From IMG/VR virus record IMGVR_UViG_2778261535_000011, positions 1 to 26,777 of that record: DNA of 26,777 nucleotides. The stretch is one strand, 5' to 3'. This DNA comes from a virus. Taxonomy: Duplodnaviria; Heunggongvirae; Uroviricota; Caudoviricetes. Under the pieces are notes generated by a model. The model saw nothing but the letters and a program-made list of their open reading frames with translations, was not told the DNA's origin and ran no database searches. The position numbers were made by a program, and so were the translations under genes. How positions within the stretch are numbered: the first letter of the stretch is position 1; every line of letters begins with the position of its first letter. Shown here piece by piece: positions 10,785 to 12,585 of the stretch.

Positions 10785-10798
10785 TTCAATGACTCCGG

Positions 10799-11005
10799 TT
10801 ACTGACCAAGCAGCGTTTTACCGCTGGTATTAGCGGTTGATGTGTCGCCCTGAGAACCGGTAAGCAGCGTAGAACTACGACCAGCAGCAGCGCGACGGCG
10901 ACGAGTTTCTTCGTCTCGGGCATCAACAACGGCGGCATCCTGCTCCTGTGGTGCTGCCTGAACTTCTGGTGTTGCAGGCACTGATGGTGAGCTACCCATG
11001 CACAT
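10799..11005 (-). CDS. Hypothetical small protein, 68 aa (uncertain)
   Basis: Seen: ORF ending 15 nt upstream of the portal ATG; its start context CGGAGTCATTGATATG nearly duplicates the portal start context CGGAGTCATTGAAATG. Low-complexity Ala/Gln/Arg/Thr-rich product. Confidence 0.3.
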   Translation of the reverse strand: MCMGSSPSVPATPEVQAAPQEQDAAVVDARDEETRRRRAAAGRSSTLLTGSQGDTSTANTSGKTLLGQ

Positions 11006-11095
11006 ATCAATGACTCCGTACGCAATTAAATTATTACCAATTTAACCACATATGATTTATTTATCGTAGATAGTTGACATTTAACGCACGAATTA

Positions 11096-11110
11096 TTACC
11101 TTTCAGGTAA
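11096..11110. promoter_or_regulatory. Operator-like palindrome TTACC-tttca-GGTAA upstream of the tRNA, next to TTGACA at 11074-11079
   Basis: Seen: perfect copy of the 15-bp motif repeated across the element. Promoter role inferred from the nearby -35-like hexamer; the -10 is not convincing. Confidence 0.45.
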
Positions 11111-11432
11111 GTAAATGGTTCATTCCGGTTATTAACCTGACTGGCTTGTCGTTAAATTGAACAGGTGGAGTGAGCTTTTATTTTGAGCAGTACGGCGTAT
11201 GGCACATGCGCCGATAGCGGTCTGGATACGTTTAAGGGGCACCCTCCCTTGCTCGGGCAAACGAACCAGGTAGCCGGAATGTGCAAGTCGAGCGGTTTTA
11301 TTCCGCGCACGGGGATTCACCATCCCGGCGATTCGGTGTGACACCTCGGAAGAGACGAGGGTGCAACGATGAGAGCATTTATGGAGCCGCGACAAAGTGT
11401 GGCGCCTTAACAGGCTAAGTGCTCTCAGCGTT

Positions 11433-11509
11433 GTGGCATTAGCTCAGTTGGACAGAGCAACCGCCTTCTAAGCGGTTGGTCGCAGGTTCGAATCCTGCAT
11501 GCCACGCCA
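11433..11509 (+). tRNA. tRNA-Arg, anticodon UCU (reads AGA), 77 nt with encoded CCA
   Basis: Seen: manual cloverleaf fold. Acceptor GTGGCAT/ATGCCAC, D-stem GCTC/GAGC, anticodon stem ACCGC/GCGGT, loop CTTCTAA, T-stem GCAGG/CCTGC with loop TTCGAAT, discriminator G, then CCA. Related to but not identical with E. coli argU as recalled. Confidence 0.9.
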
Positions 11510-11552
11510 GAATCACGCCTAAGGACCGTGATGCCAGAAGTTCCAGGTGCTT

Positions 11553-11594
11553 GGCGGTGATGGTTTCCCTTGAAGGACTATCACCGCCCTTTTT
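11553..11594 (+). terminator. Intrinsic terminator downstream of the tRNA (GGCGGTGAT ... ATCACCGCC followed by CTTTTT)
   Basis: Seen: 9-bp stem around a structured loop, followed by a T-run. Confidence 0.6.
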
Positions 11595-11672
11595 ACAGCA
11601 GGACGCCATTGCGATGACTTCATGCTGTAAACCCGTACAGCCACGGAAGGCAGAACTCATTGCTTCCAGTTC

Positions 11673-11698
11673 GCCCGGTTCGTCCGGGCATTTTTTTT
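11673..11698 (+). terminator. Intrinsic terminator (GCCCGG-ttcgt-CCGGGC followed by eight T)
   Basis: Seen: 6-bp GC stem plus T8. Confidence 0.75.
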
Positions 11699-11714
11699 GC
11701 CTGATGACCACAAA

Positions 11715-11732
11715 TTACCTTAAAGGTATAAT
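11715..11732 (+). promoter_or_regulatory. Operator-like site TTACC-ttaaa-GGTAT overlapping a perfect TATAAT (11727-11732) just 5' of the moron gene
   Basis: Seen: one-mismatch copy of the palindrome; TATAAT hexamer; ATGACC lies 17 nt upstream as a weak -35. If this is the promoter, translation starts at the second ATG (11758). Confidence 0.4.
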
Positions 11733-11733
11733 C

Positions 11734-12582
11734 ATGAAAAACTTTAAGGTAATTAGTATGTTCGAATCGTTCAAAGAGCTGTTTTTATCTACTGCCAATA
11801 CTGCCGTGCATCGAGCTAAAAACCCTGTGCTTGGTGCTTTTGTTATGTCCTGGTGCGCCTTCAACTGGAAATCACTTCTTTATCTATTTTTTAGCAAATC
11901 AAATATAATAGATAAAATTTCATACATCTCAGATAACAGCACATGGAAAACTGTTATGTTTTATCCATGCTTATCTGTAATTACTATCTGCTGCCTATTA
12001 CCATGGGTAAACAATATCATTAACGTATGGCAAGCAAAGCCTCTTGATAATAATGACTCAATCGAAAATCACCGGAAGGCAAGAAAAATACAACGTGAAA
12101 CACGGCTACAGAGATTGCTGGCTAAAAAAGACATTACTTACGAAAAAGTAAAAACAGGCGCTGAAAAAAACATTCAAGATATGAAAGAGGAAATAATTCT
12201 TTCAAAAGACAGAATGGGACAACTCACATCTGAATTGAAAGAGAGGGAGACAGAACTGCGCGCAGCACAAGCTCGTATTTTAGAATTATCTAAGGTTATT
12301 GATGAAACAACATCTAAACTAGAAAATCTAGAAAAAGCTCACAAACAATTAAAAGACGAATATAAGCCTTATAAAGAAAGTATTCATTTGACAACAAACA
12401 ACTCAATTGCAAATAGACTTGCTGATCCAAAGATAGTACAAATGATTAACGAGTCTGCAAAAAATTTAGGCATTGCTAAAATTAACAACCCAGAAATCAG
12501 TACATTATTGAATAATCCACTAGCAAATATAAATGGCGGTTTAAATCCCGCCAATCAAAGAAAATCAAAATCACAAAAGTAA
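11734..12582 (+). CDS. Moron: AT-rich membrane-anchored coiled-coil protein (about 275-283 aa); candidate superinfection-exclusion or abortive-infection protein
   Basis: Seen: opposite polarity to the flanking terminase and portal genes; strongly AT-rich relative to neighbours; two hydrophobic segments (PVLGAFVMSWCAFNW; MFYPCLSVITICCLLPWVNNII), then a K/E-rich heptad-like region (ELKERETELRAAQARILELSKVIDETTSKLENLEKAHKQLKDEYK) and an Asn-rich tail; five AGA and one AGG among twelve Arg codons. Alternative start at 11758. The ORF-track start at 11476 is rejected because it overlaps the tRNA and terminators. Function is inference. Confidence 0.65.
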   Translation: MKNFKVISMFESFKELFLSTANTAVHRAKNPVLGAFVMSWCAFNWKSLLYLFFSKSNIIDKISYISDNSTWKTVMFYPCLSVITICCLLPWVNNIINVWQAKPLDNNDSIENHRKARKIQRETRLQRLLAKKDITYEKVKTGAEKNIQDMKEEIILSKDRMGQLTSELKERETELRAAQARILELSKVIDETTSKLENLEKAHKQLKDEYKPYKESIHLTTNNSIANRLADPKIVQMINESAKNLGIAKINNPEISTLLNNPLANINGGLNPANQRKSKSQK

Positions 12583-12585
12583 AAA

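Follow-up and report, generated by a model that had tools for sequence, protein, structure and literature searches.

A widespread structured RNA and an exchangeable cargo gene between the terminase and portal genes of an ε15/phiV10-like prophage of Escherichia coli

The stretch of DNA analysed here, called the window (26,777 nucleotides (nt); IMG/VR record IMGVR_UViG_2778261535_000011, positions 1 to 26,777), is an ε15/phiV10-like prophage of Escherichia coli, genus Uetakevirus. Between its gene for the large terminase subunit (terL) and a small gp3-like gene next to the portal gene, on the strand opposite to both, we found a pseudoknotted RNA of ~240 nt (11192-11432). It stands just 5′ of a tRNA-Arg(UCU), which is followed by two terminator hairpins (T1 and T2) and a slot in which unrelated cargo genes replace one another. 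We consider it probable that positions 11006-12585 form a lineage-typical accessory transcription unit of ε15/phiV10-like phages, antisense to the packaging and head genes; this judgement covers jointly the anatomy, the early character of the unit, the role of the leader RNA, the tRNA and the cargo.

The comparisons reported below establish the anatomy of the unit and its conservation across the genus, the breakpoints and diversity of the cargo, and the structure and wide distribution of the RNA. An earlier note on this DNA, made from the sequence alone, had treated the tRNA, the terminators and the AT-rich gene as an inserted cassette and had overlooked the RNA. The ~430 base pairs (bp) that separate gp3 from the tRNA are more than spacer DNA. 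The cassette itself mainly needs better annotation; the interest of the region is raised by the unannotated, widespread leader RNA and by the defined cargo slot.

Fold and covariation of the RNA

Twenty-two diverse copies of the RNA, aligned with MAFFT, gave both the structure and the covariance model R1. Two parts can be distinguished:

11192-11367, + strand: RNA core, with hairpin P1, helices P2 and P3, a loop-to-downstream pseudoknot, and P4 with the loop GAAGAGA (model R1, 148 bits, E = 4e-45).
11364-11432, + strand: 3′ domain P5, a long hairpin CAACGATGAGAGCA...TGCTCTCAGCGTTG with a variable tip (minimum-free-energy fold).

P2 is a long-range helix that encloses a variable insert, while the (U)CACC loop of P3 pairs with a downstream GGUG to form the pseudoknot, and the closing pair of P5 reaches the first base of the tRNA. 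The fold is well supported by the alignment: 95.3% of the paired cells hold standard pairs, compared with 30-51% when the 3′ partners are slid by 1-3 columns, and 12 of the 26 pairs are changed on both sides, compared with 0-7 in the slid controls. The covariation score is 0.33, against 0.139 in shuffles (none of 500 reaches 0.33) and 0.03-0.08 in the slid alignments. For P5, compensatory variants were recognised by eye among the relatives (GAGAGCA/TGCTCTC, AAAGGCG/CGCCGTTT and GAGAGTA/TACTCTC); this domain is missing from the copies of phages P1 and P7. With model R1, a single copy is detected in the window, and ε15 retains a remnant that scores 36 bits.

A search of 10950-11800 against Rfam 15, at the gathering thresholds and at E ≤ 10, returned only the tRNA, the other matches being at chance level. 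A coding function for the RNA region was considered and rejected, as the frame is broken by 1-nt indels and the short open reading frames (ORFs) of the two strands are not common to the copies. Several records do annotate ORFs over the RNA or the adjacent tRNA, which are probably spurious annotation artefacts. PhiV10p04, TL-2011b gp24 and mEp460 gp37, all recorded as hypothetical proteins, run antisense either to the RNA element or to the tRNA with its terminators, and corresponding antisense frames lie at 11132-11395 (−) and 11439-11711 (−) of the window, and at 3240-3491 and 2443-2811 of the loci L001 and L005.

Some variation around the element was also recorded. The variable tip of P5 sometimes carries T-arm-like hairpins, GGTTCAATTCC and GGTTCGATTCC (L008 at ~3120-3210, L102 and other variants), and in L087, L031 and L044 a short hairpin takes the place of the 3′ hairpin, with a perfect boxA-like TGCTCTTTAACAA behind it. 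An extra block of ~150 nt separates the operator from the RNA in L002 (ε15, 3925-4070), L042, L060 and L099, all ε15-like phages, and in the ε15 record this block is labelled as an RNase III processing site. A deletion in ε15, corresponding to about 11228-11558 of the window, has taken out the greater part of the RNA, together with the tRNA and the left stem arm of T1.

Distribution and genomic setting

Copies of the RNA were gathered with exact 19-mer seeds, which leaves divergent members out of the following counts. The core 19-mer is present in more than 120 IMG/VR contigs among the matches listed, and in 24 species-representative genomes, essentially all of them Enterobacterales. The lambdoid version occurs in 1834 of 5426 complete E. 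coli genomes, about a third, and this highly conserved leader RNA, for which Rfam has no family, also occurs in Stx2c phages and in plasmid prophages of the P1 type. The RefSeq records listed annotate no feature on it, and a text search of a library of papers with its conserved 17-18-mers gave no match. Positions 11192-11432 are ~82-84% identical to non-coding stretches of the cdtI, mEp460, 2H10, Ayreon and Stx2c phages. The same identity is seen with Klebsiella and Enterobacter phages and, over the first ~160 nt, with P1, P7, D6 and SJ46. E. coli K-12 e14 was considered as a carrier and dismissed, the ymfK-ymfJ gap being only 174 nt, too small for the RNA. One locus, L025, has two same-strand copies ~650 nt apart, at 3993-4153 and 4800-4958 (125 and 160 bits).

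The company of a tRNA is variable. Among 129 loci, a tRNA-Arg(UCU) lies 3′ of the RNA in 33, and a tRNA with anticodon CAT lies 5′ of it in 16, all P1-like (tRNA-Ile in the P7 record), while 80 have no tRNA within 1.5 kb. The tRNAs that adjoin the RNA are always on the same strand.

The position relative to repressor and promoter is constant. In at least eight lambdoid immunity types the order is a same-strand cI-like S24 repressor, the immunity terminator, a promoter, 6-96 nt and the RNA, where the promoter is a strong σ70 promoter flanked by palindromic operators (early-left). In the lambdoid prophage L136, the RNA is separated from yfdP, the first early-left gene, by two tandem terminators, and no further promoter was detected there. 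In P1 and P7, the RNA lies inside the C1-controlled ban operon, right after the tRNA-Ile. Over the non-redundant loci, a terminator is found within 550 nt 3′ of the RNA on the same strand in 57%, compared with 21% on the opposite strand. The fixed place of the RNA at the 5′ end of repressor-controlled early transcripts opens the question of how N-less lambdoid phages pass their early terminators.

A conserved unit between terL and gp3

The packaging and head genes terS, terL, gp3 and portal are all on the − strand:

14058-14732, − strand: terS ORF (PF03592).
12586-14061, − strand: terL, terminase large subunit, preceding the cassette in the packaging operon (phrog_2, E = 1.2e-52).
10799-11005, − strand: gp3-like ORF of 68 amino acids (aa) (phrog_831, E = 2.4e-36).
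9105-10784, − strand: portal (head-to-tail connector) gene (PF12236, E = 1.1e-186).

These matches uphold the terminase and portal calls of the earlier note. The terL protein had no match in Pfam, NCBIfam or the PDB sequences, and its identity relies on the PHROGs match and on the GenBank annotation of ε15, phiV10 and TL-2011b, which agrees with the label. The terL stop codon is at 12586-12588. The gp3-like ORF, whose homologues are ε15p03 (ε15 gp3), PhiV10p06 and F365_gp25, is the true downstream neighbour of the cassette, with the portal start 14 nt further on. Of the 1.8 kb of opposite polarity claimed before, an opposite-strand stretch is real, but 10786-11005 holds this same-strand gene; since it belongs to the portal operon, the stretch is 11006-12585, ~1.58 kb.

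The prophage of strain JNE070796 (E. coli O166:H15) is 99.3% identical to 10700-12700 over the full length, and phiV10, TL-2011b and other relatives are 96-98% identical over ~55% of it. Opposite-strand genes between terL and gp3 are ε15 gp50, PhiV10p03, TL-2011b gp23 and SPN9TCW_003, and the tRNA-Arg is shared by phiV10, TL-2011b, SPN9TCW and SPN1S and is not in ε15. The order of the unit is an operator-overlapped promoter, the ~240-nt RNA, tRNA-Arg(UCU), T1, T2 and the cargo position. The window has the opposite-strand terL-gp3 unit with the shared operator/promoter block and T2, and so agrees with ε15 and phiV10, in which terS, terL, the opposite-strand unit, gp3 and portal follow one another with the same T2 and operator. 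It differs from them in its unrelated membrane/coiled-coil cargo with a promoter of its own, in place of the usual Gp49/Sf6-gp66-family gene, mini-ORF, GTGACATGTCAC palindrome and bidirectional terminator, and ε15 differs from the window in the loss of the tRNA and most of the RNA. In other phages, HK639 among them, portal directly follows terL.

A tRNA-plus-cargo cassette at this site is ordinary for the genus and largely visible in GenBank annotation. Within the lineage the position is not an unusual one, given that ε15, phiV10, TL-2011b, SPN9TCW and all 32 related loci have an opposite-strand terL-gp3 unit; no same-strand gene was found at this place in relatives.

The control elements of the unit are the following:

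11074-11102, + strand: putative σ70 promoter of the cassette, TTGACA (11074-11079), 17-nt spacer, TACCTT (11097-11102), read from the sequence.
11095-11111, no strand: operator-like palindrome ATTACCTTTCAGGTAAG, overlapping the −10 hexamer (motif of the ε15 sites).
11433-11509, + strand: tRNA-Arg, anticodon tct, with an encoded CCA end (ARAGORN; Rfam RF00005, 73.3 bits, gathering score 29).
11553-11597, + strand: terminator T1, hairpin 11553-11588 with a 14-bp stem, then CTTTTT (−23.2 kcal/mol).
11673-11697, + strand: terminator T2, hairpin 11673-11689, GCCCGG/CCGGGC, then T8 (−13.1 kcal/mol).
12534-12553, − strand: terminator-like hairpin inside the 3′ end of the cargo ORF, 33 nt past the terL stop (terminator scan).

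The TTGACA hexamer, the spacing and an operator with ATTACCTTTnnGGTAA are conserved in ε15-like phages of several host genera, whereas the sequence just downstream is not. The ε15 record marks the same motif as 'repressor (lysogeny)' sites upstream of gp3 and upstream of terS. In the window, the motif ATTACC-N5-GGTAAT occurs 11 times against 0.8 expected, at 2285, 11095, 11714, 14653, 14671, 17533, 17595, 19541, 19926, 20638 and 20700; six of these sites are in the immunity region, two before the real terS start, one each at the cassette promoter and the cargo promoter, and one at 2285. This suggests that the prophage repressor may act directly on the packaging and accessory units, and not just on the immunity region. 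Because the cargo lies behind a promoter overlapped by a repressor operator, we infer that the + strand unit would be an early, repressor-controlled transcript and not one expressed in the lysogen.

The tRNA-Arg(UCU) of the earlier note is thus confirmed with two methods, as are its two + strand hairpins resembling intrinsic terminators, each with a 3′ T-tract. T2 is a rho-independent terminator in the ε15 record, and T1 has a homologue in L136, the first of the two terminators that follow the RNA there, with compensatory changes in the stem. On the − strand neither T1 nor T2 has a U-tract 3′ of its hairpin, and the terminator scan scored both for the + strand alone, so they should be no obstacle to transcription in that direction, which weakens the claim that late transcription must read through antisense terminators. 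The hairpin at 12553-12534 stands where the relatives carry a bidirectional terminator after terL. The region just upstream of gp3 is strongly conserved and bears an operator, and no σ70 promoter for gp3-portal was found on the − strand of 11006-11190, by scan or by eye. The bidirectional terminator or hairpin, together with the operator sites before terS and near gp3, suggests that the terL side and gp3-portal may be two separately controlled units.

The tRNA-Arg is annotated in RefSeq relatives and is kept regardless of the cargo, also in the empty form. In the late genes (6624-14732), AGA occurs once and AGG 4 times among 114 Arg codons; the tRNA would therefore not serve the surrounding morphogenesis genes. 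The cargo has 5 AGA and 1 AGG among 12 Arg codons, and several early genes are also rich in AGA/AGG, which would fit a tRNA that assists accessory and early genes and is itself part of the early transcript.

The cargo slot

The part of the unit that changes between phages is sharply delimited:

11698-12595, no strand: variable cargo segment, the sole part that differs from close relatives (BLAST breakpoints 11697 and 12596).
11704-11732, + strand: cargo promoter-like site ATGACC-17-TATAAT, the best promoter match in the region (10/12).
11758-12582, + strand: cargo ORF, 274 aa (ATG 11758) or 282 aa (ATG 11734) (phrog_4780).

In pairwise BLAST comparisons, the homology to phiV10, TL-2011b, phiv142-3 and ε15 ends at 11697, the end of the T2 T-tract, and restarts at 12596, within terL and 10 nt from its 3′ end. 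This alignment of the terL-portal junction, which the earlier note had proposed, thus defined the breakpoints and showed that the cargo gene is absent from close relatives, and the junction emerges as a defined exchange site, bounded by the T2 T-tract and by the final 10 nt of terL. Across the 32 related loci, at least 12 unrelated cargo ORF families occupy the slot, always on the + strand, and two 'empty' forms of 93 and 139 bp exist, of which phiv142-3 has the 139-bp form and no gene. The cargos include the Gp49/Sf6-gp66 family (PF13876) and two Tad2-like proteins (PF11195, Thoeris anti-defence). As judged by these comparisons, the terL-gp3 slot is a cargo-exchange hotspot, normal for the genus, and with Thoeris anti-defence homologues already in it, it is a place to seek new defence and counter-defence genes.

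In most relatives the T-tract of T2 is followed by AAGGTGAGATT (Shine-Dalgarno) and ATG, with no room for a promoter, and the cargo ends with a mini-ORF, MK(D/Y)EFDGF*, the GTGACATGTCAC palindrome and a bidirectional terminator. The window lacks both arrangements, having neither AAGGTGAGATT-ATG right after T2 nor the mini-ORF, palindrome and bidirectional terminator at the end. Its promoter-like site contains the palindrome ATTACCTTAAAGGTATA (11714-11730), a match to the operator motif, and other members of the same cargo family have a similar promoter and palindrome.

The cargo gene is the AT-rich membrane/coiled-coil ORF of the earlier note, on the + strand and with a 3-nt gap to the terL stop, as described there. 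Translation probably starts at ATG 11758 (M9 of the 282-aa reading) and not at 11734, because the homologues begin at the equivalent of M9. The G+C fraction is 0.32-0.39 across the ORF, compared with ~0.52-0.56 in the flanks. The protein has one strongly hydrophobic segment at about residues 72-97 and a predicted continuous helix over residues 106-221; the N-terminal ~160 aa, with the membrane domain, are strongly conserved, and the coiled-coil tail is hypervariable. In JNE070796 the gene product is WP_142441059.1, a hypothetical protein, and all 141 homologues are annotated as hypothetical, the PHROGs family phrog_4780 being one of unknown function. A 246-aa allele of this cargo is the common occupant of the slot in E. 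coli, and in Klebsiella lambdoid prophages a single gene of this family lies on the opposite strand within the nin region. In one of these, L133 (~5880-5945), the sequence upstream of the homologue includes a short stretch, CATTGCTTCCAATTCGC..., similar to the DNA just 5′ of T2 in the window, and the mobile cargo unit may carry part of the terminator region along. The context and architecture would fit a role in membrane-level exclusion or defence. Searches with Pfam, PADLOC and NCBIfam returned only low-scoring coiled-coil noise, and none of the profiles for defence or anti-defence matched. AlphaFold2 gives an all-helical model of low confidence (predicted local distance difference test (pLDDT) 67, predicted template modelling score (pTM) 0.25).

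The earlier note had read the region as a moron, with the tRNA, terminators and AT-rich gene inserted as one, expressed from the prophage and crossed by late transcription. Part of this fits the cargo: like the lambdoid morons, it is a replaceable AT-rich segment with a single gene and a good promoter match between two conserved genes, it is present or absent between the same flanks (phiv142-3 and L066 are empty), and its relatives stand alone on the opposite strand in the Klebsiella nin region. Unlike them, it has no terminator of its own, as no + strand terminator lies between its stop codon and terL, and T1 and T2 do not act as terminators for the − strand; it also sits inside a larger conserved, apparently repressor-controlled unit. 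The slot always holds opposite-strand genes, and most other cargos there have no promoter but follow T2 directly with only a Shine-Dalgarno sequence, behind the operator-overlapped promoter, for which moron is a poor name. Even for the cargo of the window, the operator-like palindrome within its promoter casts doubt on expression from the repressed prophage. Only the AT-rich gene is thus a replaceable insert, whereas the variable segment includes neither the tRNA, nor the RNA, nor either terminator, all of which are conserved across the genus, so that the comparative data refute the moron view for the tRNA and terminators; taken as a whole, we find it doubtful.

Possible role of the RNA

The explanation that we place first, unproven and held with rather less than even confidence, is that the RNA is a put-like device for read-through in cis. 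It is favoured because the RNA leads repressor-controlled early transcripts, terminators usually follow it, and the ε15-like cargos are promoterless. The promoter under repressor control would start an early + strand transcript and be silent in the lysogen. The leader RNA would then act in cis on the elongating RNA polymerase, as put RNA of HK022 does in allowing read-through (PMC9378689), and the polymerase with the leader RNA would pass T1 and T2 and reach the cargo. The tRNA-Arg would be released from the same transcript and serve the AGA-rich accessory and early genes, while the cargo, acting at the membrane, would exclude other phages or defend against them. The early-left operon of N-less lambdoid phages would likewise owe its read-through to this RNA. 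The phages in question (mEp460, LLS, cdtI and Stx2c type) have no N gene ahead of the terminators, as there is no ORF in that place, and for one of them, phage LLS, with mEp460-type immunity, a yfdP/Q/R early-left operon and no N homologue, a put-like RNA mechanism was suggested in 2025 (PMC12315714).

In its widest form, which we offer with more reserve, the proposal is that the RNA could represent a new class of cis-acting processive antiterminator, the early device missing from N-less lambdoid prophages of Enterobacterales, that ε15-like phages might have co-opted it to gate a swappable slot for anti-defence or accessory genes, and that in P1 it might protect the untranslated tRNA-ban operon.

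Several observations weigh against read-through. The promoter, the operator occupancy and the read-through are all inferred. T1 is conserved along with the RNA, which would equally fit a stand-alone RNA gene with its own terminator, and the P1 and P7 copies have no downstream terminator, nor do 43% of the loci in the scan. ε15 has kept T2 and gp50 and lost most of the RNA and the tRNA, and the cargo of the window, with its own promoter, has no need of read-through. Neither in sequence nor by covariance model does the RNA resemble HK022 put or the putL-like RNA of HK639, and it is 2-3 times longer.

The comparison with known systems is instructive in this respect. HK022 putL/putR and the HK639 putL-like RNA resemble the present RNA in setting, just 3′ of a repressor-controlled early promoter in N-less phages, with terminators following. 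They are ~70 nt with two stem-loops, whereas the RNA here has ~165-240 nt, five helices and a pseudoknot, and is single copy per genome with no counterpart of putR. Searches of the HK022 and HK639 immunity regions with nhmmer and the covariance model gave no match. A 15-nt match of the RNA in HK022 falls within the nun coding sequence and was set aside as coincidental. On size, fold and sequence, the RNA is not a member of the put family.

With λ nutL and N, the RNA shares the place in the leader of the early-left operon, ahead of terminators. The boxB loop of λ nutL is GAAGA, and P4 is a 5-bp hairpin whose purine-rich loop GAAGAGA resembles it. The RNA is, in turn, much larger than a nut site and has no N homologue ahead of the terminators (PMC12315714). 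The idea of a nut site with a GCTCTTTA-like boxA was discarded, as a strict boxA lies downstream in 2 of 78 loci, no more commonly than in the opposite-strand controls; many of the boxA matches downstream of the RNA are terminator T-runs, and a perfect boxA is present in few loci (L087, L044 and L031).

A further parallel is found in phage tRNA clusters. In the T4 tRNA region, the tRNAs are co-transcribed with the species 1 and 2 RNAs, and the ban operon of P1 contains tRNAs. As in these, the RNA here is a structured RNA on one early transcript with a tRNA, whose processing would release it; unlike in these, most copies have no adjoining tRNA.

This parallel bears on a rival that we think rather unlikely, in which the RNA is a stable or trans-acting non-coding RNA made early after induction, as a regulator, decoy or anti-defence molecule, with T1 as its own terminator and the cargo expressed by leakage. 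The complex pseudoknotted fold, the co-transcribed tRNAs, the co-inheritance and co-variation of T1 with the RNA in two phage types, and the anti-defence genes in the neighbouring slot would all suit such an RNA. What it leaves unexplained is the position between the only visible early-left promoter and all the early-left genes, where a full stop at T1 would silence the operon, and the P1 copies, which have no terminator. If the stop at T1/T2 were conditional, the leader could be a riboswitch-like or factor-binding attenuator that couples expression to a cellular signal. Leaders that bind a ligand or a protein typically have such a size and pseudoknotted architecture, terminators do follow this 5′ leader, and the loop of P1 (GCACAT) can pair with an invariant ATGTGC, a pairing preferred by RNAalifold, so that two conformations are possible. 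The alternative pairing involves invariant bases in which no covariation can be read, there is no Rfam riboswitch match, and no overlap of RNA and terminator stems was seen, T1 lying 120-190 nt downstream with the tRNA between them in the window; we regard an attenuator as improbable.

Finally, the RNA could be a functionless relic, either a decayed tRNA cluster or a mere tRNA processing leader. It adjoins a tRNA-Arg here and a tRNA-Ile in P1 and P7, and some variants have T-arm-like hairpins such as GGTTCAATTCC in the variable tip. This reading is hardly credible in view of the 80 of 129 loci with no tRNA within 1.5 kb, the failure of ARAGORN and the Rfam tRNA model to find anything in the RNA, and a conservation and covariation far above those of decaying sequence.

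Other features of the window

The longest terS ORF starts at TTG 14732, and its first part (14652-14732) traverses two operators. The true start is probably the ATGATG at ~14651, which gives the 197-aa product annotated in TL-2011b and phiv142-3. Upstream of terS, at 14690-14790 (−), lie the GTGACATGTCAC palindrome, a mini-ORF MHDEFDVF*, an intrinsic terminator and two operators. The relatives have a near-identical kit on the other side of terS-terL, in reverse orientation, with MK(D/Y)EFDGF*, the same palindrome and a bidirectional terminator, at the terL-side end of the cargo slot (for example L001 ~3890-3985 and L007 3498-3636). These kits bracketing the terminase genes could be a leader-peptide attenuator or a recombination module.

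The window contains a second AT-rich gene at 23585-24688 (+), with a G+C fraction of 0.38 and 5 AGA codons, which encodes a DndB-like protein (PF14072, E = 3e-46) and is a probable further accessory or defence-related gene of the prophage.

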